Shown piece after piece: positions 6,288 to 63,616 of a stretch of DNA of 64,000 nucleotides; position 1 is the stretch's first letter, and every line of letters begins with the position of its first letter. The notes beneath the pieces are model-generated. The model was not told the DNA's origin, did no database searches, and saw only the letters and a list, made by a program, of their open reading frames with translations. The position numbers and the translations under genes were made by a program. Source of the stretch: Eledone cirrhosa (Eukaryota). Location of the stretch: contig OZ024741.1 of NCBI GenBank assembly GCA_964016885.1, positions 357,244,001 through 357,308,000 on the forward strand. Direction: 5' to 3'.

Positions 6288-6539
6288 ATGTCGCTTATGG
6301 ACAGAATTTTATTAAAAAGCGACTGCATACCCCCAGACTTGGTCAGTACACTTTCTTACTTTGTCCAGTGTCTGTGCAATTTGAACAAATATGATGAATT
6401 CAAAAATTGGTTAGATAACTTGATAAAGTTGAAACCATTACTATTTGAAAAGTTAAAAAAGAATGAAGATTTTGTATTTTATCTTATTAATTTACGAATT
6501 TATGAAGAGAACTTTTGCGAGGTTTATGAACTGATTAAG
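6288..6539 (+). CDS. SIX-domain + TALE-homeodomain gene (ANHX-like), coding exon 1
   Basis: ATG at 6288; MSLMDRILLKSDCIPPDLVST...NEDFVFYLINLRIYEENFCEVYELIK. Donor AAG|GTAAGT at 6540, phase 0. ENFCEVYELIK resembles the SIX-domain GNFRELYKILE helix. Confidence 0.85.
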
Positions 6540-7922
6540 GTAAGTGCTTTCAAGTTTCTAGAGTTATGAAGTTATATTAATTTGTTTTAATGTTCACCAA
6601 CTTTTTCTCTTTGGTATTAACTGTGCTTGTATCCTACAATCATTTTCTTAAGTTAAAAAAAAAAAAATCAGTTGACCTATCTTTATCCGGAATCATCTCC
6701 ACAACTTGAAGTCATATTACTAATGTCCATCGGTGCAAGCTTTATTAATAATCTCTGTGTTACTTAATAAGCTTAATTTTCAATATTTATTTTAAACTTA
6801 AGATACCCCTGCAGTAAAAATATATTTTAATAATGTTCTTTCGATGAATGTTTCATATAGTTATGAAATTTCGATATTTTTCTTCGAATTTGATCATTAA
6901 CAATTAATGATTTTTAAAAACGCATGAAAAGCAATTCTCGAATTGCTAACATTTTCTCAAAAGTAAACGAAGTTCATAAGTTGTGCATAAGGCATGATTT
7001 TATAAGAAAAAAAATAGGGCATGTCATTGACTCCAGCAGTGTTCATCTTTCACTTGAAGTTATTTTGTAAAACAAGGATTGTTATAACGGTTACAATCCA
7101 TATTGCGTTTTTTACAAGGTTGAGCGAGTCATGTTATGTAACGAATTACGTTTATATCACCCTCATTCTGTGTTTTCCTTCTAAAATTTGGTCGTTATTG
7201 AGCAGTTTACCATTATAAAAATAGATTGTTTAATTAAGGCAAAAGTAAAAATAACGAATGTGCAGTGGGAGCTGCGTATTACGATTATTTTCTAGATAAC
7301 AACTGGTAAATAACATTAAACAGAGTATAGCAATATCCTAAGCGTGTTTGGGATCCACTAATTTTGGTAACGTTAACCGTGATTATAGTAAGCGGCTTCC
7401 ATTGAATTTATTCAGTAGGGTTTATAAAAGTGACAGTGACTTTGAGATATACATGTATGTGTGTTGTATATATCAATGTATTACACTTATGAAATGGGAA
7501 AACTACATATTTTGATCTGTGGATGACAGGAACTTGCATTGACATATTTGATCTTGTGGTTGATTTAATTTAATGCAATAAAATAAAGATGAAAATTTAT
7601 TGACTTTAATTACTATCGGTTGGTTGAATATACTCTTGCACGAGTGTTTATACCAATAACAGAAAGCATAAATAATTATCAAATTCTTCAATAAAATTTT
7701 ACTTTATTGCGTCTAATACGTAGTGACCTTAGTGTTTTGGAATGTCTATCGCATTGACATCTTCAATTCGATGTACCTGCAACTCTGAACAGTCAGGCTG
7801 AGCTGGATTAAGAACTATTAAGCAAAATATGCTCGTTTAGGGCATCAAGGAAAGAAGGCCATCATTTCATTCAAATTATATGTATTTGTCATTCTAAAAA
7901 AATTTTTGGTAAATTGTTATTG

Positions 7923-8148
7923 ACACCTGTTTCCGAGACGATACTTCAGTGAAAATATAGTATATATATATTTTTAATTTTACGGGTAGTTAGTTCCTCT
8001 ATAGGATTCTGAAAGTGAAATTTATGTTTTTCTTATGATCTTTTTAATGTGTTTTGAACGAATATGGTCTTGAAAACAGTCATAAATTATTCGTTTTCTG
8101 TGGTTCCCTCGCTGAGAACTCCGTAACACCCATCTTGGAGACGGGTGT
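7923..8148. mobile_element. MITE-like element with imperfect ~18-bp TIRs
   Basis: acacctgtttccgagacg ... catcttggagacgggtgt. Confidence 0.5.
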
Positions 8149-8214
8149 AATAATAAATAAAAAGGTACCCTTTTTTAAGACTTTATAAGAGTGGAGTGGG
8201 GATATATATATAGT

Positions 8215-8490
8215 AACACAACACTGGTGGACTGGTGGAATTTTCTACGTGACATCTGAGAATTCTTCGAGAATAATCTTTAAGAACTTAGTGGCAATGG
8301 ACATGGTATCCCAATAATTGTAGAAATTGATGGGAGAAGTTCTACAAGAAGTATGACAGAGGACAATAAAGTGAAAGACAATGGGGTTCTGAACGAAACT
8401 GAAAATATTACCTTGTTGAGGTGTCACAAAGAAAAACCAGTACATTTGAAGGAACTATTCAGCGGTGGGTTTTGCTGGGAAGCTAGATCG
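8215..8490 (+). mobile_element. Merlin (IS1595/ISXO2-like) DDE transposase relic
   Basis: Frameshifted fragments VDWWNFLRDI, IVEIDG...KFYKKYDRG (cf. VEIDESKFGKRKYNRG), YYLVEVSQRKTST and QRWVL. Confidence 0.6.
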
Positions 8491-8714
8491 TACCAGCTTA
8501 GGTAATATGAATTAAACTGCAGGCGGTGTTTACGTCCATGACACTATTGTTATAACTCCACACCCTATATTTCTACTAACAACTGGCATTGTTACACAAG
8601 TTTATTAAGTTGAGTAGACTATACAGTCAAATATTAGTTATCTGAACACAATCTCAAGGTTTCATGAACATTTAACTAGCCATTACTGCTGCCATTTTAT
8701 CTTTTAGTTTGAAT

Positions 8715-9190
8715 TATTAGAGAGCCGCTACCAGAGCAAAAGATAATATCGCGAGGATCACTGGGAAACTTCTCTAATAATTTTTTAAGTAAGCCAGCAC
8801 GATCGAAGGTTGGAAAATGTAGATAGCCGACAGATTACGGTATTTTAGGATTTTGTTCCATTCGGCTGCGGATACTGTAGCTCTAGCTTTACCGCTGCAT
8901 CGAGGATGTGGGAAGAAGCAAAAGATTCACTGTTTCGTTCCAGACAGAGCACCTGCCTCTTGACCAGGAGCACAGGGTGAGTCCGTCAGGTCTTTTCCCA
9001 TCAAATCTGGACAACCCAGACGGTTCCAAAGTTGAGGGGATGTTTGCCCGGGCCAAAACTCTCTTGAAGATGAGGTTTAGCTCCGTGTGACGCACGAAGC
9101 GACCGGCATTCGGGCGGCAAACTTCAGACCTGTACAGACGTCGGCTTCCACTCTGAGGGCAATGGAAACACAAAGCTCGTCCAATCTGAT
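8715..9190 (-). mobile_element. CRE-clade non-LTR retrotransposon relic (restriction-like endonuclease region)
   Basis: RHTELNLIFKRVLARANIPSTLEPSGLSRFDGKRPDGLTLCSWSRGRCSVWN matches the RH..N...EP......RPD RLE signature. Confidence 0.8.
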
Positions 9191-9510
9191 TAGGCCATCA
9201 CCTTTCGCCTGTCTTTTGTTGTATGTGGTCCTAGATGTATGTTTACTTGCTTATGTATTTTTTCTCTTTCTTTTCCTCTTCTTTTTTTCCCTTTCCTTTG
9301 TATATATTTTATTTGTTTGTGTTTTCGTTCTGTAAGCATTATATAATTTTATTTTTATACAACTGTGAATAAAACTACTATTATTAGAGATGAATTCAAA
9401 TTACTGCAGAACATGTAAAAATGTTAATCAAACAAGTCACCGGCACCAATCTTGAACGTCTTTATATTTAGTTATCGAAAGTGCCATTAGTTTGATTCCT
9501 GTTAGTCACT

Positions 9511-9725
9511 TTAACCCTTCAACATTTAAACCGGCCGTATCGGCCAGAATTCTCTCACCTCTTTCTGTTCAAACTGGCTGTAACTGGCTACTCATACTGA
9601 TGTTAAAGTATTGTTTTCAAAATAAATATCAAAATCTCGTAGATTCGATATTATGTGAGGTAAAGCCTTCCCCATGAAAATACAATACTAAATAATATAG
9701 AGTAATATAAATGCTAAAGGGATAA
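9511..9725. mobile_element. TTAA-CCCTT (piggyBac-like) MITE, family 2
   Basis: Ends ttaacccttcaacatt ... aatgctaaagggataa. A second copy at about 57452-57665 is nested in a family-1 MITE. Confidence 0.6.
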
Positions 9726-9807
9726 CAGTGTTAAAATAATTGTAACATAAAAATGACTGACATACAGAATAATTTAATAAAATTGATATTTTTTGTTTTG
9801 TTTTTAA

Positions 9808-10236
9808 GGTTCACGGCTTTCGTTGCCGAACGGAATAAAATCCTAAATTACTGGGAACTATCAAATAACTATTTTTCCCAGCTTGTGACATTCGAAACGT
9901 TTGGTGACGCTGAACCGCTGACAGCGAAGTTCTTCTCATCGTTAGCGGCTCACCTTACCGAGGTGTTACGTAATGCCTGTGAGGTTGCCTGTTTTTTTCA
10001 GTGCCTTAGCCTCGCCATCACCCGCGGCAATGTTGCGAGCGTGTTGGCTGGTCTCAAAATGTTTCCGTTGGTCCCTGTCGTGTGCGGTCGATTGTCGCCT
10101 TTTTGTTTTTGTGCAATATATTTGTGAGGTTCCTAGCAATAATTAATTGTATTTATTATCTGTTTACATTTGTGTTTATATTTTCATTCTGTGAGAATTA
10201 TAAACAATTTGTAATGTTATTTATACAACTGTGAAT
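9808..10236 (+). mobile_element. CRE-clade retrotransposon C-terminus and 3' UTR relic
   Basis: AERNKILNYWELSNNYFSQLVTFETFG...FFQCLSLAITRGNVASVL is the typical K..KY...ET.G...QR.S.A..RGNA terminus. The T-rich 3' UTR is similar to 9192-9385. Confidence 0.75.
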
Positions 10237-10384
10237 TCTGTAAATTATTTAAATTCAAGACAATAAAAAAAAAAATGAAATAGAAAGTAAAAATGTCAAT
10301 TTTCTTTTACCAAATCCCCTTTCCTGAATTCTGTTAATTCATTGCCGTCGTATATTTTTTACTTAAAAACATTTCTTTTAACAG

Positions 10385-10506
10385 AATGGAACATTTACAA
10401 AGCCTGAAAGATTTATTTTGCTTTGGGATAAAGCTCACTATAAGTTAAAAGAAAAAGAAAAAGGTTTCCCGTTAACCCCACTTGCACGTTTCAGGGTGAG
10501 AAAAAA
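10385..10506 (+). CDS. SIX-domain + TALE-homeodomain gene, coding exon 2 (not in ORF track)
   Basis: Acceptor tttcttttaacag|; NGTFTKPERFILLWDKAHYKLKEKEKGFPLTPLARFRVRK(K); donor AA|GTAAGT at 10507. Phase 0 to 2. Matches SIX-domain LW.KAHY.EAEK.RGRPL..V.KYRVR.K. Confidence 0.92.
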
Positions 10507-10639
10507 GTAAGTCTATTTTCCATTTGTTATTTTAATATAATAATTGTTTCTACTTTAGGCACAAGGCCAGCAAATACTCAGTGCATTACTGGTACTTTAT
10601 TTTATCGACCCCGTAAGGATGAAAGGCAAAGTGAACCTT

Positions 10640-11352
10640 AATATAATAATTTTAATATAATAATAATGAAATTTTTGTGTACAGTGTTCAGGTGCACTAC
10701 AATTCGTCAAAGGTGCATGTATAGTACATAGAATAATATACAAATGTCAGGGAAGTGAATAGTGTATGAGTCATGATATACATGTGTACGTGTGTATGGA
10801 GGGGGGATATTAGGTGTAGTGTTGGCGAATCTCATGAAGCATGGAGGTTTTAAAGGATGCAGTGTCTCGACATCTAACAACTGATGCAGGTAGTTTGTTC
10901 CATGCTTCAACAACTCTGAGCGTGAAAAGATGTTTCCGAAAGTCTTGGGAGCTGTGCTGTTTTCTGACTTTGTTGGCATGCCCACGTGTGTTAGACACAT
11001 GGAAATCAAAAAAGTGCTCAGTGTTGTTGTTGGCAAGATAGTTAATAATTTTGTGCGTGTTTACCAAGTCAGTTGCTAGACGTTGGAGCTTCAATGTATC
11101 CATGCCCAGGGAAGCAAGGCGTTCAGAGTATGGTAGGTGTCTGATGGAGGGTATTCGCTTGGTTGCACGTCTCTGAACAGTTTCCAGGTGGTCAATGTTC
11201 TGAGCAAGATAGGGATTCCAGACTGGTGATACAAATTCTAAGTGTGGCCGCACCATAGCTATATACAGCTTTAAATAGATAGCTGGAGAGCGGCTGACAA
11301 AGGTCTTGCTGAGTGATGCTAAATCAACCTCGGCCTTCTTGACAATTTAGAG
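10640..11352 (-). mobile_element. CR1-clade LINE 3' fragment in intron 2
   Basis: ORF 10810-11256 VRPHLEFVSPVWNPYL...AWNKLP; same family as 1-978. Confidence 0.9.
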
Positions 11353-12614
11353 ACGTTACTCATCTCTTCAGCCTTTGCCAAGCATAACACAGATAATAGA
11401 TATAAACACATGGGTGCACGAGAAAGTAAAGCATAGGCCATTTTTGGAGATGACACCTCAAGCCTGACATTTTGTTTGAGATGAGCTCAGACGCTCATTT
11501 TACACACATACACATACAGTCATGATAGCAGCCTTCGATAAATTGGAAATGGGAGGCTAAAATGAAGTATAACTTTTTATTTATTTATTAACGACGATGA
11601 GTATGCAGTTGTTTGATAAACTGAATGTCCTACTCACAAATTAACATGTAAGTGGTTGAGTATTCTACAAACACATATAGTCTTAGTGTAATAGTGTAGC
11701 ACAGTGTGTGACAAAGCTGGATCTTTGAATTATAGGTATAGTCCATCTGACAGCCTTCACCATACCTTCTGATTACTCTCATTTCACTCATAACACTTTG
11801 GTTGATCCGAGACTATGGTAGACTCTTGTTGAAGATGCCATGCAGTGGGATCAAACTCATGATTGTCAGGCAAACTTTTTAACTATTTAACTATACGTTT
11901 GTTAACATAATTGTTTCTACTTTTGGCACAAGGTCAGCAATTACCCCAGTGTATTACTGGTGCTTTATTTTATTGACCCCGTAAGGATGATAGACAAAGT
12001 TAACCTCGACGGGATTTGAACTCAGGCCGCAAAGGGCCATAACTCTATGCTGCAAAGCATGGTGTCTGACACTCTACTGATACTGCCAATCCACCACCTT
12101 TGTCTACATATTAAGATATGAGATTATGCTATATAAACTGGGAATATTACTGTAGAATAAGTTACAGTACAATTCAATAAAAACAAAAAGTGATATACAA
12201 GAGGGTATAGAAAATGTTACTGGGAAAAGTGTTAAACTGAAAACATTTTAGCCCCCCCCCCCTCCCTTCATACTGTACAAATATATAAAACTATATTCTG
12301 TACCATACTAAGTAAAGGCGCCTGACCTCGTCGCAACCATGAAGTTGTATGCTTGAATCCCAGACTGTAACTAGTCTCTGAACAAGACACTTCATTTCAC
12401 ATTGCTCCAGTCTACTTAGTTGAAAAAAAATAGATAGCTGCAAAGGACTGGCTTCTTGTCTTGCTTAACACCAAGGAAACTGGGATAAGCTGTGGCCTAA
12501 TGAACTTTGGAGCTTGGGAAAGACTTTAAATTTTCAAATTCCAGCATGACTTTCTGTCAGCTATATCTGACTATTTTATAATATTAATATCATGAAAATA
12601 AAGTGTATTACTAT

Positions 12615-13130
12615 TTGTAAATAAATCAGTTGACTTGAGAAACATTGGGAAAATTGAAAATGTGTCCTAATGCAAATGGCCATATTGATAGTTGATTACT
12701 ATAGATAATAGTTAAGAAAACTGAGTAAAGTGCTCCTGGAGATGGGAAAAAGTGGACAGAGGCACCTGTGAGAAAACAAACCCTACATCTCTCAGAAGCT
12801 GAGCGGGTTCCTTAGTAAAGAGCTGCTGGACACCTATTCTGTTTTTTATTAGATTTCAAGCCTGTAGCTAGATGTATAAATAAATTAGTTGATCTAAGAA
12901 GCATTGGGAAAATTTAAATTTTGAAATATATGCCTCTGAATGCAAATGACCATAATAATAGTAGTTGATCACTATGAATAATAGTTGAGAAAATCTGGTG
13001 AAATACTCCAGAGGTACTTTGCCCAATTTTCTCAACTATTATTTGTAGTGATTTGGGTAATTGCTGGCTTTGTGCCAAACGTAGAAACAATTATTATAGT
13101 TATTTACGTTGGGGGTGTACACATTTTGTA
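12615..13130. mobile_element. Two tandem partial copies of a fold-back (MITE-like) repeat
   Basis: cattgggaaaatt...aatgcaaatg.ccata...ataatagtt.agaaaa occurs at about 12643 and 12902. Fuller fold-back copy at 40650-40925; another at 22285-22430. Confidence 0.7.
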
Positions 13131-13159
13131 TTACTATTTCTTTTTTTTCTTTTAACCAG

Positions 13160-14076
13160 GTTCCCACCACCTAAAAGTATTTGTCCAACTGGTCAAAGAC
13201 CTACAAGCAACTTGCCTGAACAGGCTCGTCAAATCTTGAGGCAGTGGTTTGACAAAAATGTTGACAATCCTTATCCTAATAATGATGAAAAAAAGCAGTT
13301 AGTGGAACAAAGCGGGCTGCTATTATCTCAAGTAAAGACTTGGTTTGCCAATACTAGACGTCGGAGAAAAGTGGCACTAAATCAAACTTACAAAAGTAGC
13401 ATTAAACCAAGGTCACAAAACCAGAAGATTATCCCAAATTACTACCAGCTTAGCTGCTCCGAGAGATTAACTAATATTGAGTCTATTTTAGATACTTCTA
13501 TGAAGAAAGTTGGACTGTATCCCAATGAAGAGATCAGTGAAATGGAAATTTTACCTGTTCTAGAACCACAGGATCAGTGTTTGTTTAAAGTTAAAGAAGA
13601 TGGAAATAGTTGTAAAGAATGTATGAAAATAGTTTCAGAAAAGATGCTACAAAATCAGGAAGAAGTTCACTGCTTAGAAAATAATGAAGTGAAAATGAAT
13701 TTAGATGCCAAAGATTCTCATGGAACAAGGAACTTGGATTCAGCACTACTTGAGAATTCTTATCCTGTTTTACAAGCACAACAAATTATTGTCCCTAAAG
13801 GAAACAATTATTATAATGCGGAATCTGAACAAAATGAAATTATCATGGGAAACGTTTGTAATAGTTACAACTTATTTGTAGATGGAGAGTTTCCTGACAA
13901 TTTCAATATCCTTCAAGATTGTGTGGAATTTAAATGTATTAATAGTGATGAAAATAATTTCTCTCCAAATAGAAGCAATGAAACAATTGTTTTCAATCCA
14001 AGTGATACCACTTTGATGACAAATATTAACCCAGCTGTACCAGACAATCTATGGTCAATGTCAATTTTTCCAACAG
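13160..14076 (+). CDS. SIX-domain + TALE-homeodomain gene, coding exon 3 (homeodomain 13191-13379)
   Basis: Acceptor (t)n-aaccag|G completes AAG. Reads KFPPPKSICPTG, then [53 protein letters not shown] (L16, W19, F20, 3-aa insertion, PYP, WFAN48-51, R53), then an N/E-rich region. Probable donor CAG|GTTTGA at 14077 (phase 1). Confidence 0.95.
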
Positions 14077-14605: not shown

Positions 14606-16595
14606 ACTAAAATCCTTTTAAATGCTTCGTCTTCATCTCCTCCTTCATCATCACCGTTTTACGTCCGTTCTTCCACGCTAGCATGGGTTAGACGGGTTGT
14701 CCTGTTGTGGGCAGTGTCTGGTCGGCTGACCATGCCTTGCTCATACAGGAACTGATCTGGCTTGATTTCTACAGCTGGATGCCCTTCCTAACACCAACCT
14801 CATTTACAGTGAGTGCTGGGTGCTTTTTCGTGGCGCCTACACGTCCACTTTACAGTGTGGGCTGGGTGCTTTTTTGCCGTGGCACCTCCACGACCACCTT
14901 GCGGGGGGGGGGGGGGGGGGGCATATTGTTTATATGCTTCAGCATGTACCCATGGGAGGTCGGGTACCCTGTATTACTGCGTGACGCCAGAAGTCACGGT
15001 CGTGTGTCATTGACTTTGAGAGGTGTAGTTGGGTAAGGTCGGCTTTTATCACCTCATCCCAAGTCATCTTGGGTCTCCCCACTCCGCGGTTTCCATCAAC
15101 TTCTAGTGCTCTGCACCTTTTTATGCAGCTGTCATCCTTCATACGCATCACATGTCCATGCCAGCGTAACCGCCTCTCCTGCACGCAGCATTTGATTCCT
15201 CTTATGCTCAGTCTCTCTCTCAATTCATTTATGCTTTGTCGTTCACGTATATTACTGTTACACATCCATCGGAGCATGCAGGCTTCGTTTCTCTCTAATC
15301 TACGTAAGTCTTCCACCTTCAGCGCCCAGGTCTCACTACCATGCAACATCGCTGTTCGGATACACGCATCATACAGTCTGCCTTTCATTCTGAGGGAGAA
15401 GCCTTTTGCAGCTAGCAGTGGTAGTAGTTCCCTAAACTTCTTCCATCCCGTTCTTACCCTAGTTATTGTACTTTCTGAGCACCCACCTCCGTTGCTAATT
15501 CGGTCACCTAGGTAGCAGAAGCTGTCTACTGTTTCTACAGGGCCCTCCCAGAGATTGGTGGTACTTGTTTCCTGTGGCTGTTTGCTTGCTGTTTCAGCAC
15601 AGCTGCTGCATGTGAATCCTACATTCTTAATTAAGCTTCCTGAGATCCCGCTACATCTCTTGTGTACCCATTGTTTGCATTTGGGGCAAAGAATGGAGTT
15701 CCTACCTACACCTTTCCTACATACTGAGCAAGGCCATTTCCCTGAGGGGATCTGGGTTCTGTTTTCTCGTCTACTTATAAGGACCTTAGTCTTTGTCATG
15801 TTGACTTTGAGGCCCTTTCTCTCTAGTCCCTGCTTCCAGGTTTGGAATTTATTCTCTAGTTCTACCATAGATTCAGCTATGAGTGCGAGGTCATCAGCAT
15901 ACAGGAGTTCCCATGGGCATCCGGTCTTAAACTCCTCCGTTATTGCCTGCAGGACTATGATGAACAGGAGAGGGCTAAGAACAGAGCCCTGGTGGACCCC
16001 AACCTGTACGCTAAATTCCTCGCTATACTCATTGCCAATCCTAACTTTGCTGACTGCTCCCCTATACATGGCTTGTACCGCTTTCACAAGCCATTCATCT
16101 ACTCCTAGTTTTCTAAGAGCCCACCAGATTACTGCACGTGGAACTCTGTCAAAGGCTTTCTCAAGGTCGACAAATGCCAAGTAGAGTGGCTTACTTTTAG
16201 CTAGGTACTTTTCCTGTAATTGCCTCACAAGGAAGAGCGCATCAGTGGTGCCTTTCCCTGGAACAAACCCAAATTGCATCTCGTCTATATTCACCCGGTC
16301 CCTAATCAGCTGTGCTATAACTCTTTCTGTTACTTTCATGACCTGGTCCATCAACTTTATACCTCTATAGTTTCCTCTATCTAGTGCATCGCCTTTACCT
16401 TTGTAGCAGTTGACAATGATGCTACTGCACCAATCTTTTGGTATGGCCCCCTCTAGTATTACCTGGTTAACGATACGTGTGGTTATAGTGTGACCTACAG
16501 ACCCAGATGCCTTCAGCATCTCGGCAGCTATACCCGATGGACCGGTTGCCTTCCCTATCTTCATATCTCTGATTGCCTTACTTACTACGCTGCCA
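14606..16595 (-). mobile_element. RTE-clade LINE, 5'-truncated, uninterrupted RT + PHD finger + C-terminus
   Basis: ORF 14939-16669; RTE homology begins about 16594. Motifs QFGF, FVDLEKAFD, GVHQGSVLSP, LYADDL, CSVC-CPKC-H-C-CSSC, RRLRWHGHVMRM, GRPKMTW. 3' tail (GAT)n. Confidence 0.95.
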
Positions 16596-16659
16596 TATTC
16601 TTGGGTGGGCTGTGGGGAAGAATCCTCAGACTTCCAGAAGGTCCAATCAAAAGTAACCA

Positions 16660-16950
16660 TCTCCGACATGTGGATAGGTTTGCTGCTGAGTGCTACACAG
16701 CAGGAATGAAGATCAGTGATGTGAAAACTGAGACACTCGTCTTCTCAAGAAAGCCTGCGTAGTACACTCTGCATGTGAGTGGAGATTCACTGAGGTAAGT
16801 GTGGAGAATTTTAAGTCCCTTTGGGCTGTGTTCACGAGTAATGGAAGGCAGGAGGCTGAATTAAGTGCAAGAATTACAGGAGTTGCTGCAGTAGTGTCAG
16901 CTTCAACACTCAATCATTAAAAGAAGGTGTAAAGGCCAAATTTGCTGTCT
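16660..16950 (+). mobile_element. Degenerate RT fragment of a second RTE family (Expander/Rex3-like)
   Basis: DRFAAECYTAGMKISDVKTETLVFSRK...VENFKSL..VFTSNGRQEAELSARI, with stops. Confidence 0.7.
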
Positions 16951-18403: not shown

Positions 18404-18512
18404 ATTGCCTGACACCATCAACCAACCAGAATCTTGCCATTTGTTATGACCAAACCTCACAATGGACCAATAATATCCAGAGTGATGAAGACCCAAATAT
18501 ACATAACATAAA
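18404..18512 (+). CDS. SIX-domain + TALE-homeodomain gene, coding exon 4
   Basis: Acceptor tgttattttctag|, donor AA|GTAAGT at 18513. Phase 1 to 2, open: DCLTPSTNQNLAICYDQTSQWTNNIQSDEDPNIHNI(K). Confidence 0.75.
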
Positions 18513-19647: not shown

Positions 19648-19726
19648 ATTATCAGCAACCATACCAAATAGAAACAACAGTACCACTATTATATTAGTGG
19701 AGAGAAAAGAACCCCAGGCTTGTGTA
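19648..19726 (+). CDS. SIX-domain + TALE-homeodomain gene, coding exon 5
   Basis: Acceptor attgcttatag|, donor |GTAAGT at 19727. Only the phase-2 frame is open, matching exon 4: LSATIPNRNNSTTIILVERKEPQACV. Ends phase 0. Confidence 0.7.
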
Positions 19727-22005: not shown

Positions 22006-22065
22006 CCACAGAAACGCCTTGAAGAAGAAATTGCTCAAGTTTTATTAAATCTCTCCACTGTTTGA
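22006..22065 (+). CDS. SIX-domain + TALE-homeodomain gene, terminal coding exon 6
   Basis: Strong acceptor ttttttatttttcag|, phase 0: PQKRLEEEIAQVLLNLSTV*. TGA at 22063-22065. Joined CDS 1539 nt = 512 aa. Confidence 0.75.
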   Translation, partial: PQKRLEEEIAQVLLNLSTV

Positions 22066-29017: not shown

Positions 29018-31572
29018 CATCATCATCATCATCATCAACGTTTAACGTCCGTGTTCCACGCTTGCATGGGTTTGGACGGGGGTAGTCCCACTTGAGGCAA
29101 GCTCGCATAGGACTGTCTGGCAGGTTTTCTACAGTTGGATGCCCTTCCTAACACCAACCACATTTACAGTGTGGGTCTGGGAGGTTTTTACCGTGTTGCC
29201 TACACGGCCACATTACAGCGTGGACTGTGTGTTTTTTTTTTGTCGTGACACCTACACGATCTCATTTGTTTCGGCCTGGATGGCGCGGCACCAACATAAC
29301 TTTACATAGAACGGGGTGGTGGCGGGACGGGGTGTATTTTGTTAGAGATGCCTACTGGCAAGGCGGGTCTTCTCTGTTACTGAGTACCGCCAAAGGTCTC
29401 GGTCCAGTGACATTGTCTTGGAGAGGTGTAAGTGTGTGAGGTCGGAGTTTATCAGCTCATCCCATGTTTTTCTAGGTCTGCCTATTCCGTGGCTACCGTC
29501 TATCTTTATTGCCCTGCACTTTGTTATACAGCTATCGACTTTCATACGCATCACGTGTCCATACCAACGCAGCCTTCTCTCGAGTAAACAACATCTGATC
29601 CCTCTTATCTCTAATTTTTTCCTTAGTTCGTTTATGCTTTGCCGTTCACGTATATTACTGTTACACATCCAGCGCAGCATGCAAGCTTCGTTCCTCTCTA
29701 GTCTGCGTATATCCTCTGCACACAATGCCCAGGTCTCACTACCATGCAACATTGCTGTTCGTATGCAGGCATCGTACAACCTGCCTTTCATTTTTAGGGA
29801 GAACCCTTTAGCAGCTAATAGTGGTATAAGCTCTCTGAACTTTTTCCAACCAGTTCTGACTCTAGCTACAGTACTTTCAGAGCACCCTCCCCCACTGCTG
29901 ATTTTATCGCCCAGGTAACGGAAGCTGTCCACTATTTCTATAGAACCCTCTGCGCAATTGAAAGAGCTAGTATTTTGTGGGCACTTGCTGCTACTTATTG
30001 CACCAGAACACCGGCCACATGTAAAATCTATGTTCTTAGTTAGCTTACCTGTGATCCCACTACATCTTTTATGCACCCATACTTTGCATTTAGGACATAA
30101 AATGGAGTTTCTACCTACGCCTTTCCTACACACCGAGCACGACCATTTCCCAGAAGGGACCGCCGCCTTGTTTTCTTTCCTACAAACTAGAACTTTGGTC
30201 TTAGCCAGGTTAATTTTAAGTCCTTTTGACTCTAGGCCGTGCTTCCATGTTTGGAATTTCTTCTCTAGCTCGGCCATTGATTCCGCTATGAGTGTCAGGT
30301 CGTCTGCGTATAGGAGTTCCCATGGGCAGCCTGTCTTGAACTCCTCTGTTATAGCCTGAAGGGCAATAATAAATAGTAGGGGGCTGAGAACAGAGCCCTG
30401 ATGGACGCCAACTTTTACGCTAAACTCTTCACTATATTCGTTGTTAATTCTAACCTTGCTGACTGTTTCTTTATACATGGCTTGTATAGCCCTCACAAGC
30501 CATTCGTCAACGCCTAGTTTTCTAAGAGCCCACCAGATAATGGAGCGGGGGACTCTGTCGAAGGCTTTCTCCAGGTCGACAAAAGCTAAGTAGAGGGGTC
30601 TACCTTTAGCTAGGTACTTCTCCTGTAGTTGTCGTACTATGAAAAGGGCGTCTGTGGTGCTTTTGCCTGACACAAACCCGAACTGCATTTCATCTAGGTC
30701 AATTCTCTCTCTGATTAGTTGCGCTATTACTTTTTCCGTGACCTTCATGACCTGGTCGATTAATTTAATGCCTCTATAGTTACTTCTATCTAGGGCGTCT
30801 CCTTTACCCTTATAACAGTTAACGATGATGCTGCTATGCCAGTCCTCCGGAACAACCCCATTCTGTACGACTTGGTTAACTATGCGGGTGACCATGGTGT
30901 GTCCCACCGTGCCAGATGCCTTCAGCATCTCAGCAACTATTTCCGAAGGCCCAGCCGCCTTACCCGTCTTCATATCCTTGATTGCCTTACTTATTATACT
31001 CCCCTCGACTAACACTGCTGGTCCCTCTATCGGGTCGATATGGGGGAGACTGTCTTTCTCCCATTTATTCTCCTCATTTAGTAGCCTTTCATAGTGACAC
31101 TTCCAAGCTACCTTCTTATCAGTGTCGGTGATGGCAAGTATGCCATCATCGTTAAGTACACACTTCTCCCCGACAATATCACGGTTTTCCTTGACGCATT
31201 GCCTGGCAATCCTGAACACCTCACGTTTTTGGTCATCGCGTTGTAGAACATGCTTGAACTTTCTTTCCTCAGCTTCCCTTCTTGCTAAGTACACTTCTCT
31301 CCTAGCTTCCCTCCTGGCCACTTGATAGTCTACTCTACTTCCCCCATCCCGCCATACTTTCCAAGCCTGCTTTTTGGCCTTAATTGACCCCTCCACCCTA
31401 CTGTTCCACCACCAAGTTACTCTCCTCCTGCCTACAGGCCTGCTCCAGCCACAGACTTCGTCTGTCGCCAACAGCAGGTTTGCTTTCAGAAATTCCCACT
31501 GTCCCTCTATATTGTCCGATTCTAGATGCTCTTCCTTACTGTCGAAAGCATCAAGTAATATGCTTTGAAATT
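29018..31572 (-). mobile_element. RTE-clade LINE (second subfamily), 5'-truncated, 709-aa uninterrupted ORF
   Basis: TWWWN linker, RT motifs (FVDLEKAFD, GVHQGSVLSP, LYADDL), C4HC3 PHD finger, GRPRKTW. (GAT)n tail; (TA)n on both flanks. No endonuclease domain is present. Confidence 0.95.
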
Positions 31573-32035
31573 TATTTCTATATATATATATATATATATT
31601 TATATGATTGTAATCAGAAGTAACATTTTTTACTTAGACTTTTTACATTTCTGGTGATGGCATGTGCCTATTGGGCTCTCAATCGTAGAGCCATGTACTA
31701 GTCAGTGCATTGTGTCTTTGTGCAAGGATTGTACTCTCCATCACTTGATGTCAATGAAACCAGGAATAAGCTCCAGTCTGGAGATATGTGACAGACTTTA
31801 ACTTTTACACATTTAGTTGACAATAATCACTATATACTCAAATATAAGCTAACCTATTTTATGCTTGAGAAATGAGCAAAAACTCAAACCCCATTTAAAA
31901 GCCGAGGCAGTTAATCAACACATTATGTTTAGAAGCTGTGGTTTTGAAATTCGTATGTGTATGAATTGCATTTATGAAGTTTTAATATTTTGATGTTTAA
32001 AATGTTTTAAGTATCGTTTTGAGTATAGTTTCTGT

Positions 32036-44600: not shown

Positions 44601-46421
44601 TATTGAGATATGCAGAACATAGTGTTTTTGAACATTAAATATTAAACTTGTCTTGATAAGGTGTTATGAGAATGAGAGAGATAGGGGAAGAGAAATTATA
44701 CATCCTTAGTGGTTTATACATTTCAAATGTAAACAAAATATGTTTAGATAGAAAAAAAAGTAATTTCTCTAATCCTATTCAGTTTCTGATTTTACAAAAT
44801 AATATTTTTTTAAATTCATAGATTCTCAATTTATGACATTCAAAACATAAAAAAGGCAAAATAACATAGTTAAAAGAAGTGGGGGTGGGGGAATTTAAAA
44901 TGTTGATGCTTAAATGAATAAGTGCTAAAACGGAAAATAAAACCATGTAAAATTAATTTAATAATTTAAAATTATTTTGAAAATCACAATTAAAAAAAAA
45001 AAATTCTTTAAATGCAATAATTGCATTCATTTAAATGAAATATCATCATCATTTAACATGTTTTCTCTGCAAGCAGGGATACTGACCTGCCAGACAGGCC
45101 AGGGTCTACATCTCACATATGGTCCCACTCTCTACCGAGTGCATTTTATTGTGACACCTGCACTAGAGAGTTTGTCATGTCTTTAACACAGGTGAAGGGT
45201 CCTCCCAACCCTTTGTTTGGCAAGCTTTCTATGGCTAGATGCCCTTCTTAGTACCAACCACTTTACAGCATGTACTGGGTGGATTTATCATGTAAAAATT
45301 TTCTTTGTATCAAATTTAAAAAAAGGATTTTTAATTCTGTGTAAAAATTGTAACTCTAAAAACATTTTGACTAAGTATTTTACCTATTTCGATTTCTTTT
45401 TGTTCTTTCTCTTATTTTTACCTATGTAGTTTTCCAATATCAAAATAAAGAATACTCACTAAATTGTTTTGTTTTGTGGTCTGAAAGAAAGAGTTTACAA
45501 AGCTATAAACTAGACAAGTGAACAGTATGTCACCAGCAAAATATAAGCAAAATATTTAGAATATTAGAGCAATAAAATTTAACAAAAGTTGTTTAATTTC
45601 TAAATTGTTTCATAACTTAAAGAAAAAAAACAAAACGATTAAAACAAGAATAAATAATAAAGATGTTATTTGTTAAAAACTAAATTGTTAGTCAGCATGG
45701 GTGTAAAATTTGGAGATATTTAATATTTCAAAGGTGAGAGCATTTTATAAAGCGAAAATAGAATGCTTAATGAAGGATGGAATTTTAAATATGAAATGTG
45801 AAGCTGATGGAAGTGAACTGTTTTGAAAGCAAAAGGAAATTATTGTGACATTGTGAATGAGTCCTCAAGAACAGCTCCAATGTACAAAAGTTATATAATT
45901 AGTATAAAAAGGATCAACCATCATATAACAAAATTATTGCTAATTTAGTATATATAAAGGGTTATTACTAAAATTACGAGTTTTTAGAATTCATTGTGTT
46001 CCTAAAGACAAACTCTAATAATGTACCAAAAGTTATTGTGGACTGGAAATAAAGAAAATTACTGTATGTTCACCTGTTCTATTTACATATCTAAAAAATG
46101 ATTTATTTAAAAAAAACTAACAAAAGCCAATGTCATTAATTAAATGAACAATGTTTTAGTCAATAAATAAATACCAATAGATTCATAGAAAGTGTCTGTA
46201 GGAAAAGAAACATATGAAGTATTATGAAGTAAAAAAAATGGTGCTCTCAGTATAGCTGCAGTCTGTTGAACAGAATAATTTGTTAATTGCTTTTTTTTTT
46301 TTCACATATATCTAATATTTCAGATATACACATACACACACAGTAAAAGATTTGTTGTGGTAAAAAATTCATGTTTTATTTCATTTTATCAGCTGGTAGA
46401 AAAAAAATGTATATACAAAAC

Positions 46422-46832
46422 TTAATGACTGTGTGTCATCAGAGTATCAGGTGCATGTGTTGAGGGTGAAGAGGGCTCCGAAGTGGATTGGTGAAGTCGG
46501 CTGTCGAAAGACTGCCGAGATTGGTTCAGCAAGACAGTCTTTAGTCTTTGCTTGATGTCTTCTGTCGAGGGTGATGGTTTGATGGTCAGACTGTTGGAGT
46601 GCATCAGACTACGGGGTATGGCAGCCAGTTTCACTGTACAAGGTTTGATGAGTTTGCGAGGGTCCAGCCCAGACATATCTGCTCCTGTAGGGTCCCCTCC
46701 CAATGGTGGCCCAGCCATGCCCAACATGGCAGGCGTAGACAATGTTCTGGACAGGGGTCCACTGTTTGAAATGGCTATCAGATCCCTGCTTCCGCCTGTC
46801 AGATCTATTGGTTCCACAGAAGACATTTTAGC
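46422..46832 (-). CDS. Terminal coding exon (distal duplicate) of an unidentified gene with PIDLT and MEF2-binding-like motifs (possibly Cabin1-like)
   Basis: Branch point and acceptor ctaacccagctcctcgttatttctgcag|GCT AAA ATG. GC-richer open frame AKMSSVEPIDLT...STEDIKQRLKTVLLNQS...THSH*, followed by an AT-rich UTR. Confidence 0.8.
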   Translation of the reverse strand, partial: AKMSSVEPIDLTGGSRDLIAISNSGPLSRTLSTPAMLGMAGPPLGGDPTGADMSGLDPRKLIKPCTVKLAAIPRSLMHSNSLTIKPSPSTEDIKQRLKTVLLNQSRQSFDSRLHQSTSEPSSPSTHAPDTLMTHSH

Positions 46833-48549
46833 CTGCAGAAATAACGAGGAGCTGGGTTAGACTTGACTTAAAATCCAAGTCACCAGTTGAGGCAGTAGGG
46901 ACTAGTGTTGCTCACTGACAATGCTTGGGTAGAGACAAGTCAGTTTCTACTTTTGTACACAAACATACACACTCGCATTTATAGAAAATAATTAAGATAC
47001 ACTTACTTAGATACTTATGTACAAAAAAATACATTTTATTTAATGAGAACAAAAAAAAAACAAAAAAAACATGGAAACAAAAATAATCAATTCTTAATAA
47101 AGTCCCCTTAAAATTTTGAAGAAATATTTATTTATGAAAAAGTATTTTTCTAAGTCTTTAGTAAATAAAGCATTGATGACAAATGTAATCATTCATTAAT
47201 GAAAACTGTATATAACCAAACCATAAATGACTATTAAATAACTGAAGAATTTTGTTGAAACAAATATTAATTAAAGTATCTTAATCAGATGCCAAAGCAC
47301 TAAACTAACCTAAAATGGTTTTGAATTATTTAAAAAGCATGTTTCTGTGATTTACAAAAGAGAGAAAATTAATTAATGATGAGTGTAGATTTATTAACAA
47401 ATAACACGTAAAATATATATTAATGAGATTTATCATTTCATAATTGCCAACATATTCTAAATAGGATAATTTTGATAATGTAACAAATATTGATTTCTAA
47501 TTTAGACACAAGGCCAGCATATTTGAGGGAAGGACATAGTTGATTAAACCAACCCCAGTTCTTGACTGGTACTTTATTTTATCTACCCCGGAAGGATGAA
47601 AGGCAAAGTTAACCTCAGCAAGATTTGAACTCAGAATGTAAAGAGCCAGAACAAATACCACAATAGCATTTTATCTGACACTCTACCGATTCTGACAATT
47701 CACCGCCCTCAAGAAAGAAAAATGTATTAAAATCTACTTGATATCAAACTAAGAAATGAGATGATTCTAATGTATAACAAAAATGACAATTGTACGAGTA
47801 GAAGATAAGAAAAGAAGAATAAAGAATATATATATATGTATATGTGTGTGTGTGTGTGTGTGTATATATAAATGTATAAATATGTATGTTAGAGAGGAAA
47901 AGAAAGATATACATATATATATAAAAATGTACATAGATTTAAATACAACCCCCTCCCCCAGTCATAAATGACTCTGTGGCACAAGCCAAGGTAAGGTAAT
48001 TTAATGGAAGACCAGCTGTCGCCCATGCATAACAGTCTTTCCTCTCCCTGCCACCAATGTTATCAAACGGAAAGGCCAATACAGCTTGGCAACAGTGATG
48101 TGACAACTCATTTTTTCCAGCTGAGTAAACTGGAGTGACACGACATGAAATGTCTTGCTCAAGGACACAATGCACTACCTGGTTTGAGAATAAAACTCAC
48201 AACCTCACAATTATAAGCCTACTGCTCTACCCATATATAAATATAAAGATGTACAACAGATCTATAATGTGTGTGCATGCTTACAGAATTATGTTCACAA
48301 ATGCAGTCTGTCTTTCAGCAAGTTATTTTCTTTTACGCTATCTGTTTCTTTTTTTTTTGTTCATTTAAAGAGAGTTACTTGGTCAATTTCATAATGAACT
48401 GATTGATGGTAGAAATAACATATTTTCCTATATACCTGAACCAAGAGACAACTAACTATATCAAACTAACATGGGTAAATTAAACTTCTTCCCCTCTCCA
48501 CCAGTTATATGTATGTATGTATATATATATATATGTGTGTGTGTGTATG

Positions 48550-49206: not shown

Positions 49207-49946
49207 TAATATTAGTGCATAAGAATGTGTACTCAATAATATAATAGAGATAAACAGTTTATTAAGGCTGATTCAGAGGCCTGTTACTCTGTGTTACAGT
49301 TGAAGTATTTAACTATCTGAAAAACCTGTCGCATATAGGAGAAACTCCACATTAACAGGACATTGAGTCAGTATTAATAAACTATATATTATAAAATGTA
49401 AATACACATGCCAGGTCTCTCCATGGACACACAGGGGAACTAGGTATTTTATGTGTCTCAGGCTAACTCAGTAGGGGATCTTGCAGCAGCGTTGTGGACC
49501 AGAGAAACAATGTGCTGGCCTACACTGGTAGATATTCCTTGACATTTATTAATCTACTGAAAGATATTGTGGACTGGAAATAAAGAAAATTACTGTATGT
49601 TCACCTGTTCTATTACATGTCTAAAAATGATTTATTTTCAGAAAACTAACAAATGCCAATGTCATTAATTAAATGAACAATGTTTTAGTCAATAAATAAA
49701 TACCAATAGATTCATAGAAAGTGTCTGTAGGAAAAGAAACATATGAAGTATTATGAAGTATAAAAAATGGTGCTCTCAGTATAGCTGCAGTCTGTTGAAC
49801 AGAATAATTTAATTGCTTTTTTTTTTCACATATATCTAATATTTCAGATATACACATACACACACAGTAAAAGATTTGTTGTGGTAAAAAATTCATGTTT
49901 TATTTCATTTTATCAGCTGGTAGAAAAAAAAATGTATATACAAAAC

Positions 49947-50357
49947 TTAATGACTGTGTGTCATCAGAGTATCGGGTGCATGTGTTGAGGGTGAAGAGGG
50001 CTCCGAAGTGGATTGGTGAAGTCGGCTGTCGAAAGACTGCCGAGATTGGTTCAGCAAGACAGTCTTTAGTCTTTGCTTGATGTCTTCTGTCGAGGGTGAT
50101 GGTTTGATGGTCAGACTGTTGGAGTGCATCAGACTACGGGGTATGGCAGCCAGTTTCACTGTACAAGGTTTGATGAGTTTGCGAGGGTCCAGCCCAGACA
50201 TATCTGCTCCTGTAGGGTCCCCTCCCAATGGTGGCCCAGCCATGCCCAACATGGCAGGCGTAGACAATGTTCTGGACAGGGGTCCACTGTTTGAAATGGC
50301 TATCAGATCCCTGCTTCCGCCTGTCAGATCTATTGGTTCCACAGAAGACATTTTAGC
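49947..50357 (-). CDS. Terminal coding exon (proximal duplicate) of the - strand gene
   Basis: Same protein as 46422-46832. The phase-0 acceptor is compatible with the phase-0 donor at 63616. Confidence 0.8.
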   Translation of the reverse strand, partial: AKMSSVEPIDLTGGSRDLIAISNSGPLSRTLSTPAMLGMAGPPLGGDPTGADMSGLDPRKLIKPCTVKLAAIPRSLMHSNSLTIKPSPSTEDIKQRLKTVLLNQSRQSFDSRLHQSTSEPSSPSTHAPDTLMTHSH

Positions 50358-52049
50358 CTGCAGAAATAACGAGGAGCTGGGTTAGACTTGACTTAAAATC
50401 CAAGTCACCAGTTGAGGCAGTAGGGACTAGTGTTGCTCACTGACAATGCTTGGGTAGAGACAAGTCAGTTTCTACTTTTGTACACAAACATACACACTCG
50501 CATTTATAGAAAATAATTAAGATACACTTACTTAGATACTTATGTACAAAAAATACATTTTATTTAATGAGAACAAAAAAAAAACAAAAAAAACATGGAA
50601 ACAAAAATAATCAATTCTTAATAAAGTCCCCTTAAAATTTTGAAGAAATATTTATTTATGAAAAAGTATTTTTCTAAGTCTTTAGTAAATAAAGCATTGA
50701 TGACAAATGTAATCATTCATTAATGAAAACTGTATATAACCAAACCATAAATGACTATTAAATAACTGAAGAATTTTGTTGAAACAAATATTAATTAAAG
50801 TATCTTAATCAGATGCCAAAGCACTAAACTAACCTAAAATGGTTTTGAATTATTTAAAAAGCATGTTTCTGTGATTTACAAAAGAGAGAAAATTAATTAA
50901 TGATGAGTGTAGATTTATTAACAAATAACACGTAAAATATATATTAACGAGATTTATCATTTCATAATTGCCAACATATTCTAAATAGGATAATTTTGAT
51001 AATGTAACAAATATTGATTTCTAATTTAGACACAAGGCCAGCATATTTGAGGGAAGGACATAGTTGATTAAACCAACCCCAGTTCTTGACTGGTACTTTA
51101 TTTTATCTACCCCGGAAGGATGAAAGGCAAAGTTAACCTCAGCAAGATTTGAACTCAGAATGTAAAGAGCCAGAACAAATACCACAATAGCATTTTATCT
51201 GACACTCTACCGATTCTGACAATTCACCGCCCTCAAGAAAGAAAAATGTATTAAAATCTACTTGATATCAAACTAAGAAATGAGATGATTCTAATGTATA
51301 ACAAAAATGACAATTGTACGAGTAGAAGATAAGAAAAGAAGAATAAAGAATATATATATATGTATATGTGTGTGTGTGTGTGTGTGTATATATAAATGTA
51401 TAAATATGTATGTTAGAGAGGAAAAGAAAGATATACATATATATAAAAATGTACATAGATTTAAATACAACCCCCTCCCCCAGTCATAAATGACTCTGTG
51501 GCACAAGCCAAGGTAAGGTAATTTAATGGAAGACCAGCTGTCGCCCATGCATAACAGTCTTTCCTCTCCCTGCCACCAATGTTATCAAACGGAAAGGCCA
51601 ATACAGCTTGGCAACAGTGATGTGACAACTCATTTTTTCCAGCTGAGTAAACTGGAGTGACACGACATGAAATGTCTTGCTCAAGGACACAATGCACTAC
51701 CTGGTTTGAGAATAAAACTCACAACCTCACAATTATAAGCCTACTGCTCTACCCATATATAAATATAAAGATGTACAACAGATCTATAATGTGTGTGCAT
51801 GCTTACAGAATTATGTTCACAAATGCAGTCTGTCTTTCAGCAAGTTATTTTCTTTTACGCTATCTGTTTCTTTTTTTTTTGTTCATTTAAAGAGAGTTAC
51901 TTGGTCAATTTCATAATGAACTGATTGATGGTAGAAATAACATATTTTCCTATATACCTGAACCAAGAGACAACTAACTATATCAAACTAACATGGGTAA
52001 ATTAAACTTCTTCCCCTCTCCACCAGTTATATAGTTATATATATATATA

Positions 52050-52891: not shown

Positions 52892-55419
52892 TAGATATTT
52901 TACTCAACGCCTACGACAGTAAAGAAGAACAGATACAGACATTTAATGTAGAAGAGAACTGGGAGTTCCTAAAAAATAATTTACTAGAGGCGACGGATGA
53001 GGTCTGTGGCTGGAGTAAGACCTCAAGCAGGAGGAGAGTGACTTGGTGGTGGAACAATAAGGTAGATGAAGCAGTTAAGGCCAAGAGACAGGCATGGAAA
53101 GAATGGAAGAACAGGGGGAACAGGGTACATTACATAGAGACCAAGAGGGAAGCTAGGCGACAAGTATACTTAGCTAGGAGGGCAGCAGAGGATAGAAAAT
53201 TCAAGCATGTTTTGCAACGTGAGGACCAGAAACAGGAGGTATTCAAGATTGCGAGGCAGTGATTCAGAGATAGTTGTGATGTCATTGGAGAGAAGTGTAT
53301 CCGGAATGATAAAGGTGAGCTTGCCCTCACAAGTGCTGAGAAGAAAGATGCATGGAAGAGTCATTATGATAGATTACTAAATGAGGAGAATGCATGGGAA
53401 GAAGAGACCCTACCCCAAGTAGACCCTATAGAGGGGCCAGCAGTACAAGTCAGCAGCAACGTAGTAAGTAAGGCAATCAAAGATATGAAGATGGGGAAGG
53501 CATCCGGTCCATCGGGTATAGCTGCCGAGATGCTGAAGGCATCTGGGTCTGTAGGTCACACTATAACCACACGTATTGTTAACCAGGTAATACTAGATGT
53601 CATACCAAAAGATTGGTGCAGTAGCATCATTGTCAACTGCTACAAAGGTAAAGGTGATGCACTAGATAGAGGAAACTATAGAGGTATAAAGTTGATGGAC
53701 CAGGTCATGAAAGTAACAGAAAGAGTTATAGCACAGTTGATTAGGAACCGGGTGGAAATAGACGAGATGCAATTTGGGTTTGTACCAGGAAGAGGCACCA
53801 CTGATGCCCTCTTCCTTGTGAGGCAATTACAGGAACAGTACCTAGCTAAAAGTAAGGCACTCTACTTGGCATTTGTCGACCTTGAGAAAGCCTTTGACAG
53901 AGTTCCACGTGCTGTAATCTGGTGGGCTCTTAGAAAACTAGGAGTAGATGAATGGCTTGTGAAAGCTGTACAAGCCATGTATAGGGGAGCAGCCAGCAAA
54001 GTTAGGATTAGCAATGCGTATAGCGAGGAATTTAGCGTACAGGTTGGGGTCCAACAGGGCTCTGTTCTTAGTCCTCTCCTGTTCATCATAGTCCTGCAGG
54101 CAATAACGGAGGAGTTTAAGACCGGATGCCCATGGGAACTCCTGTATGCTGATGACCTCGCACTCATAGCTGAATCTATGGTAGAACTAGAGAATAAATT
54201 CCAAACTTGGAAGCAGGGACTAGAAAGAAAGGGTCTCAAAGTCAACATGACAAAGACTAAGGTCCTTGTAAGTAGACGAGAAAACAGAACCCAGATCCCC
54301 TCAGGGAAATGGCCTTGCTCAGTATGTAGGAAAGGTGTAGGTAGGAACTCCATTCTCTGCCCCCCCCCCCCCCCCTGCAAACAATGGGTACACAAGAGAT
54401 GTAGCGGGATCTCAGGAAGCTTAATTAAGAATGTAGGCTTCACATGCAGCAGCTGTGCTGGGACAGCAAGCAGCAAACAGCCACAGGAAACAAGTACCAC
54501 CAATCTCTGGGAGGGCTCTGTAGAAACAGTAGACAGCTTCTGCTACTTAGGTGACCGAATTAGCAGTGGAGGTGGGTGTTCAGAAAGTACAATAACTAGG
54601 GTAAGAACGGGATGGAAGAAGTTTAGGGAACTACTACCACTGCTAGCTGCAAAAGGCTTCTCCCTCAGAATGAAAGGCAGACTGTATGATGCTTGTATCC
54701 GAACAGCAATGTTGCATGGTAGTGAAACCTGGGCGCTGAAGGTGGAAGACTTACGTAGATTAGAGAGAAATGAAGCCTGGATTCTCCGATGGATGTGTAA
54801 CAGTAACATACGTGAACGACAAAGCATAAATGAATTGACAGAGAGACTGAGCATAAGAGGAATCAAATGCTGCGTGCAGGAGAGGCGGTTGCGCTGGTAT
54901 GGACATGTGATGCGTATGAAGGATGACAGCTGCATAAAAAGGTGCAGAGCACTAGAAGTTGATGGAAACCGCGGAGTGGGGAGACCCAAGATGACCTGGG
55001 ATGAGGTGATAAAAGCCGACCTTACCCAATTACACCTCTCAAACGCAATGACACACGACCGTGACTTCTGGCGTCACGCAGTAATACAGAGTACCCGACC
55101 TCCCATGGGTACAAGCTGAAGCATATAGACAATATGCCCCCACACCCCCCACCGCAAGGTGGTCGTGGAGGTGCCACGGAAAAATAGCACCCAGCCCACA
55201 TTGTAAAGTGGACGTGTAAGCGCCACGAAAAAGCACCCAGCACTCACTGTAAATGAGGTTGGTGTTAGGAAGGGCATCCGACTGTAGAAATCAAGCCAAA
55301 TCAGTTCCTGTATGAGCAAGGCATGGTCAGCCGACCAGACACTACCCACAACAGAACAACCCGTCTAACCCATGCTAGCGTGGAAGAACGGACGTAAAAC
55401 GGTGATGATGATGATGATG
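52892..55419 (+). mobile_element. RTE-clade LINE, 5'-truncated, one premature stop, candidate 6-bp TSD ATGGTA
   Basis: ORFs 53038-53262 and 53485-55119 (RT, PHD). Near-identical to 14606-16595. atggta at 52886-52891 and 55420-55425. Confidence 0.95.
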
Positions 55420-63523: not shown

Positions 63524-63616
63524 TCAGCAAATATATCTATTACTACTACTGCTACTGTTGTGGAGAGTAGAAGAGGACAGAGGTGGGGGTGGGGAAGGAT
63601 GAAATGCAGAACGCAC

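Follow-up and report, generated by a model that had tools for sequence, protein, structure and literature searches.

The SINE class of homeobox genes is described as comprising three families with a typical homeodomain and Lys50 (PMC2211742, PMC2959044, PMC6125248), the typical homeodomain being a criterion in PMC2211742 and Lys50 in PMC6125248; here and below, statements on the literature refer to the accessible portions of the papers cited. The mixing of TALE and SINE homeodomains in phylogenetic trees is regarded as artefactual (PMC2211742, PMC2959044, PMC6125248). Human ANHX has been placed in the SIX homology group (PMC5928047) and has also been filed as Other (PMC5094009). Among invertebrates, TALE-XIII was erected for oyster TALE5 (CGI_10014640) together with genes from Patella, Lingula, Capitella and Spirobranchus (Barton-Owen 2018, PMC6118893). 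As published there, it only just satisfies naming criteria according to its authors, is a weakly supported lophotrochozoan TALE novelty, and has no cephalopod or deuterostome member in the accessible text; CGI_10014640 itself carries the UniProt label Protein sine oculis. Another study left oyster TALE5 undetermined and, in its accessible part, described no large domain accompanying the homeodomain other than PADRE (Paps 2015, PMC5322547). Here we describe a gene in a 64,000-nucleotide stretch of the octopus Eledone cirrhosa (contig OZ024741.1 of GCA_964016885.1; hereafter the window) that encodes both a Six domain and a TALE-loop homeodomain. Sequence comparison makes it likely that this gene is the cephalopod orthologue of vertebrate ANHX, in a fourth Six-class family. 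Its homeodomain is already catalogued as TALE-XIII; the Six domain and the link to ANHX are absent from the accessible portions of those accounts. A literature search found no link between ANHX and an invertebrate family, and most subscription papers, orthology databases and supplements, which may hold one, were beyond its reach.

The window gene is real and intact, and its three exons (Table 1) encode the Six domain followed by the homeodomain. Introns 1 and 2 both have GT-AG ends, a GTAAGT donor in phase 0 lies directly after exon 1, and the spliced exons form a single open frame. This frame contains, in order, all of the peptides listed in a preliminary description of the window, and intron 2 has the phase and the position (RK|KFP) given there. 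Exon 2 matched the Pfam family SIX1_SD at 27.5 bits (cut-off 27.4) and exon 3 matched Homeobox_KN, while a scan of exon 1 by itself matched no Pfam family. The homeodomain has three extra loop residues (about 13260-13268), Thr47, Ala50 (13347-13349), Asn51 and Arg54, and its best solved relative is PKNOX1 (E 3.6e-13). Contigs of one sample (three runs) read through introns. Downstream of exon 3, a predicted six-exon model with consistent phases runs to a stop at 22065 and encodes 512 amino acids. The motif in its last exon is identical to the Argonauta protein P0034 at 12 of 17 positions (E 0.01 in a 9-kb search; match spanning 22009-22059). The donor at 14077 is weak; if it is unused, the frame stops at 14105 (439 amino acids), and this read-through form is also open.

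The window gene is a fourth Six-domain gene of this genome, beside Six1/2, Six3/6 and Six4/5. [quoted passage not shown] A genome search with exon 2 found only exon 2 itself and a weak match to Six3/6, and the window gene therefore looks single-copy. As in SINE genes, its Six domain is N-terminal to the homeodomain. [quoted passage not shown] Nor does it fall within any of the three canonical families: its tetrapeptide region reads QRPT, and the three canonical Six rows form a clade of their own (100/100).

Relatives of the window gene were found in several phyla. Among the best 150 of 7305 matches in a HMMER scan, 13 aligned as one stretch from the linker onward. The SIX1_SD cut-off was passed by nine of the 12 members scanned; one fragment scored below it, and two begin after the domain. 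Named members come from molluscs (Argonauta, Gigantopelta, Patella, Saccostrea, Mizuhopecten), a nemertean (Lineus) and hemichordates (Ptychodera, Saccoglossus), the closest to the window protein being that of Argonauta hians (66% over 171 columns). A metagenome scan gave six loci among 113 stretches, four belonging to the family (L018, L019, L020, L022) and two being other homeodomains; L018 and L020 group in trees with P0132, P0134 and P0145, separately within the family. A single-exon word search yielded one relative among three candidates, and an Atlas search in which the homeodomain was the sole query produced TALE-like matches only, all under 0.9. The published oyster and limpet TALE-XIII homeodomains are near-identical by eye to family members P0102 and P0097, and through these stand-ins, which group with the window gene in trees, the family includes TALE-XIII. 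Two Spirobranchus rows of TALE-XIII look different by eye and may not belong. The class-ambiguous Nematostella homeodomains NVHD007/045 share LPKEA.RI, Thr47 and Ala50 by eye with the group of P0132, P0134, P0145, L018 and L020 (PMC1779571 supplement), a likeness that we regard as a lead and that concerns the homeodomain only.

The connection to ANHX rests on sauropsid proteins (bird, turtle, crocodilian and lizard) rather than on human ANHX. A language-model search with residues 110-295 of P0145 placed an ANHX cluster first (0.93), followed by SIX9 (0.88) and SIX6 (0.78), which again serves as a lead. With a profile of 11 invertebrate rows, 64 of 73 matches were bird proteins (63 of them named ANHX), four were family members and five were others; among the 120 of 329 matches listed from a second search, 119 were sauropsid, with turtles, a crocodilian and lizards joining the birds. 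Several family members that lay within the range of the word-indexed searches were missed by them, so the absence of canonical Six proteins from both searches that found ANHX is not evidence. In the opposite direction, an ANHX profile gave 14 of the 15 family rows higher scores than the best Six protein. Identity to ANHX is about 33%. Predicted models of relatives show a Six-domain fold and a homeodomain: for the Patella and ostrich proteins (pLDDT 73.6 and 86.7), SIX1 (4egc) was the sole match under E 0.001. Among the ANHX proteins, Mauremys mutica has three different ones (P0292, P0293, P0294) on equally long contigs, which suggests a local duplication in this turtle, and in one bird gene model (P0302) a 14-3-3 protein is fused to the N-terminus of ANHX, a hint that these genes lie next to each other.

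Phylogenetic analysis was performed on both domains together (174 columns, 23 rows, site-mixture model), on the Six domain and on the homeodomain. P0132 was left out of the two-domain tree, P0132, P0134 and L020 out of the Six-domain tree, and P0001 and P0107 out of all trees; four and six of the ten ANHX rows and 16 of the 23 outgroup homeodomains were also left out. In the two-domain tree, ANHX and the invertebrate family are separated from Six at 100/100, with ANHX inside the bilaterian family rows at 82/69. The approximately unbiased (AU) test rejects a grouping of ANHX with Six1/2, Six4/5 or Six3/6 both for the two domains (p 0.0004, 0.0005 and 0.0023) and for the Six domain alone, against any canonical Six (p 0.0013, 0.0013 and 0.0022). 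The homeodomain tree (60 columns, without whole octopus rows for Pbx and Meis) separates TALE, Six, the family and ANHX from typical homeodomains at 97/96 and resolves little inside this group. The suggestion in the preliminary description that a TALE-like loop may be ancestral fits the data, but this tree does not decide it.

Site patterns point the same way as the tree tests. Among 41 scorable columns, nine unite ANHX with the family, six unite the family with Six and three unite ANHX with Six (two unite none and 21 all); the nine are divided between the Six domain with the linker (five) and the homeodomain (four). When ANHX was simulated as a Six derivative, an excess of at least six was reached in 0 of 300 replicates in each of 18 sets, and in 5-8 of 300 in six two-state worst-case sets. 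Not every motif that had been proposed as diagnostic is so: W..HY is common to canonical Six proteins, the Pro of LTP also occurs in Six3/6, and Pro9 and WFAN are common to other TALE homeodomains. The resemblance as a whole nevertheless exceeds chance and simulated convergence. Of the strings attributed to human ANHX, the one that runs from LTP to the linker Gly and WFANYRRR are present in sauropsid ANHX. The DCIPP stretch of the window protein is not conserved even in Argonauta.

Rare characters provide further support. The family and ANHX have in common a one-residue linker insertion, reading CP.G versus the WDG of octopus and human Six. In a Chamaea isoform (P0295), 64 additional residues stand precisely between FRCRR and RNPPP, the only such case among 117 vertebrate rows scanned for insertions and deletions, and the ends of this insert fit a retained GT-AG intron in phase 2 only. 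We infer that bird ANHX has a phase-2 intron at the codon of window intron 2, the position being read from this one intron-retention protein rather than from genomic DNA; the comparison of intron positions proposed in the preliminary description therefore favours orthology. Two Ptychodera isoforms (P0120, P0163) diverge at the same point, which is read through in P0132 and L018, and the three canonical Six genes of the window genome, the one genome in which canonical Six introns were checked, have none there. The fragment P0236, which is nemertean-like, continues into an intron where window intron 1 is located. Six family rows end in a helix, EIAQVLLNLS or a variant of it, that aligns with WAAWLLFEFS at the end of ANHX. 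Taken together, the trees and AU tests, the intron position and phase, and the hemichordate members support the proposal that an invertebrate orthologue dates ANHX to the bilaterian ancestor.

Several observations weigh against this assignment. The reciprocal search envisaged in the preliminary description went the other way: the best hit is one-way only, and a family profile ranks Six1/2 (139.6 bits) and Six3/6 (132.8 bits) above the ten ANHX rows (110-126 bits), a preference that would be expected if ANHX evolved fast. A homeodomain-only family profile likewise scores Six at 49-60 and ANHX at 31-40, and an ANHX homeodomain profile puts only six of 15 family rows ahead of the best Six. Among the 120 of 329 matches listed, none comes from a mammal, an amphibian, a fish or amphioxus. 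Relative to a typical homeodomain, the loop is longer by three residues in the family, by one in ANHX and by none in Six, and the YP of NPYP is missing from ANHX. Long branches lead to both ANHX and the invertebrate family, the canonical Six rows in the trees are three only, all from the window genome, and in the Six-domain tree a clade of the invertebrate family alone is not rejected (AU p 0.34). Pro9, Ala50 and Arg54, among the uniting homeodomain states, also occur in TALE genes, and such TALE-wide states, at least three of the nine columns, may be ancestral. The terminal motif is the best window in eight of nine ANHX tails scored (nine of 33 proteins), but shuffled sequences reach its score in 139-197 of 200 cases, and the helix is therefore counted as suggestive only. 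Finally, expression of oyster TALE5 peaks after the trochophore stage and not in eggs (PMC5322547), and what can be said of the function of the window gene is inferred throughout.

Part of this evidence would also be accommodated if ANHX and the invertebrate family were two separate ancient Six-domain lineages that kept ancestral states and underwent complementary losses, making them relatives and not orthologues. The differing loop lengths, the TALE-wide states, the p of 0.34 and the support of only 82/69 for ANHX inside the family all leave room for this arrangement. We nonetheless consider it quite unlikely, since it requires complementary losses, with no taxon seen to have both genes, and since an intron common to octopus, hemichordate and probably bird argues against it, even if that intron is absent from P0132 and L018; the family-only clade appears in just 7% and 1% of bootstrap trees. 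Still less credible is an origin of ANHX in vertebrates as a rapidly evolving copy of a canonical Six gene, resembling the family by convergence and long-branch attraction. Both sides are indeed long branches, the best hit is not reciprocal, and ANHX shares with Six Asn47 and a Lys at one Six-domain column. Six AU tests (p<=0.0023) and a site-pattern excess not reproduced in simulations already largely refute this explanation, and convergence by substitution does not explain a shared insertion and intron. The topology tests asked for in the preliminary description turned out in favour of ANHX grouping with the family. The published view of TALE-XIII and Cgi_TALE5, under which the window gene would be a lophotrochozoan-specific novel TALE gene, accords with the near-identity by eye of the oyster and limpet homeodomains to P0102 and P0097, but it is refuted on age by members in Ptychodera and Saccoglossus and on domain content by the Six domain of the window gene and its relatives, and it can practically be set aside.

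A different kind of alternative concerns how the family arose and would still allow ANHX to be its orthologue. A duplicated Six gene could have acquired, by shuffling, an Irx/Mkx-like TALE homeobox placed behind its Six domain, in which case the TALE loop would not be ancestral for the Six class. An intron at the end of the Six domain, a recognition helix equal to that of Irx and a homeodomain whose best solved relatives are TALE would suit such a chimera. The Six-type linker (FPPP.SICP.G, homologous to FPLPRTIWDG) shares the post-intron exon with the homeodomain, however, so a simple exon swap does not fit, and the homeodomains do not group with Irx/Mkx, although this last point is weak; on balance we judge a chimera unlikely. 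Orthology of the window gene with ANHX is also compatible with a history that we put forward tentatively, as a possibility somewhat short of even. The family may be a surviving TALE-SINE intermediate, in which a Six domain first joined a TALE homeodomain; the loop would later have disappeared from canonical Six genes, with Lys50 arising in them, and the branch without these changes would extend from cnidarians (candidates being NVHD007/045 and P0132-type records) by way of molluscs and hemichordates to human ANHX, acting there as a repressor in the germ line.

The window gene likely acts as a transcription factor of the Six-domain kind whose DNA recognition is of the TALE type. Thr47, Ala50, Asn51 and Arg54 of the family are those of the recognition helix in the Irx genes of the window genome. 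Since this helix equals that of Irx and lacks the Lys50 of Six, the protein would probably bind Irx-like rather than Six-like (Lys50-dependent) sites. SIX1 binds EYA through one helix (PMC11252760), the counterpart of which is divergent in the window family. Six family rows contain an LxxL pattern at the terminal helix. An amphipathic LxxL helix in Tet1 binds a PAH domain of Sin3 (PMC6168491), and the terminal helix of the window protein might conceivably recruit a co-repressor of the Sin3 type, though we regard this as doubtful; repression through Sin3/HDAC would be the consequence. In the window genome, introns interrupt the PAH domains. Human ANHX is testis-restricted (3.73 fragments per kilobase per million, or FPKM, with all other tissues under 0.1; PMC5094009) and marks spermatogonia (PMC9713473). 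By analogy, a gonadal or germ-cell role of the window gene could be entertained, with reservation.

The remaining features of the window are listed in Table 1. A frame in intron 1 (9735-10124) was ruled out as an exon, as it has no Pfam match and no fit to P0034; it looks like a retroelement fragment. The three LINE-type reverse transcriptase frames are mutually related. In the 2.5-kb tandem duplicate, contigs from one sample are collapsed on a single copy, with a depth of 13-17, compared with 5-10 alongside, and the duplicate may reflect a genuine duplication or an assembly effect. Elsewhere in the genome, two Tgif-like and three Irx homeodomains were found, and by eye the homeodomain of L007 (G000:C1:161931784-161931903) matches TALE-I as published, so TALE-I seems to be present in cephalopods.

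Table 1. Features of the Eledone cirrhosa window, with positions counted from its first nucleotide.
Feature	Position	Strand	Remarks
Exon 1	6288..6539	+	ATG, N-terminal extension, first two thirds of Six domain; 52% identity to Argonauta P0034, E 4e-22
Retroelement-like fragment	9735..10124	+	High-copy; in intron 1
Exon 2	10385..10506	+	End of Six domain (LWDKAHY ... LTPLARFRVRK); PF16878 E 4.6e-6; 71% to P0034
Intron 2	10507..13159	+	Phase 2, inside Lys codon preceding FPPP
Retroelement-like fragment	10813..11346	-	High-copy; in intron 2
Exon 3	13160..14076	+	Six-type linker FPPPKSICPTG, homeodomain, long poorly conserved tail
TALE-type homeodomain	13191..13379	+	PF05920 E 2e-17
LINE-type reverse transcriptase frame	14942..16744	-	Inside predicted intron 3; PHD finger after the reverse transcriptase domain
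Predicted exon 4	18404..18512	+	Splice sites and phase fit; weak likeness to P0034, E 1.1
Predicted exon 5	19648..19726	+	Evidence: fitting splice sites and phase only
Predicted last exon with stop	22006..22065	+	Conserved terminal helix motif EIAQVLLNLS at 22027-22056
LINE-type reverse transcriptase frame	29345..31633	-	
Tandem duplicate, copy 1	46016..48500		2.5 kb; copies 99% identical
144-codon frame in copy 1	46425..46856	-	No Pfam match; probably exon of a neighbouring gene
Tandem duplicate, copy 2	49547..52022		
144-codon frame in copy 2	49950..50381	-	Same frame as in copy 1
LINE-type reverse transcriptase frame	53263..55116	+	
158-codon open frame	63527..64000	-	Leaves window end; no Pfam match; probably further exon of a neighbouring gene

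If the assignment is true, the little-studied ANHX is what survives of a fourth Six-class family that has gone unnoticed and that dates back at least to the common ancestor of molluscs and vertebrates. Should all of these sequences represent a single gene, a fourth family of Six-domain genes already existed in the bilaterian ancestor, invertebrate models become available for an orphan testis gene of humans, TALE-XIII no longer counts as a supposed spiralian novelty, and the long-noted mixing of TALE and SINE homeodomains in trees acquires a concrete and testable intermediate. Compared with known systems, the window gene resembles canonical Six1/2, Six3/6 and Six4/5 in having a Six domain immediately before the homeodomain and a homologous linker, but differs in its TALE loop, in introns within the Six domain, and in lacking Lys50 and an ETSY/QKTH/ETVY tetrapeptide. 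With Irx and Mkx it shares the three-residue loop, PYP and Ala50, and with Irx also the combination Thr47-Ala50-Asn51-Arg54, but the family does not group with Irx/Mkx in the homeodomain tree and, to our knowledge, neither Irx nor Mkx has a Six domain. The terminal LxxL helix appears similar to the Sin3-interaction helix of Tet1, as far as the latter is described in the accessible text. TALE-XIII, represented by P0102 and P0097, shares both the linker and the Six domain with the window gene, whereas the accessible published account mentions neither a Six domain nor a link to ANHX. Sauropsid ANHX differs in an N-terminal arm that is one residue shorter, in Asn47 and Tyr52, and in an intron inside the homeodomain (isoforms P0229, P0299 and P0300) that is absent from the window gene. 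It nevertheless shares with the window gene a Six domain followed by a homeodomain, an N-terminal extension ahead of the Six domain, LT...F R and the PPP.S.CP.G linker with its identical insertion, Ala50 and Arg54, a hydrophobic terminal helix and, as P0295 suggests, a phase-2 intron at the same codon.

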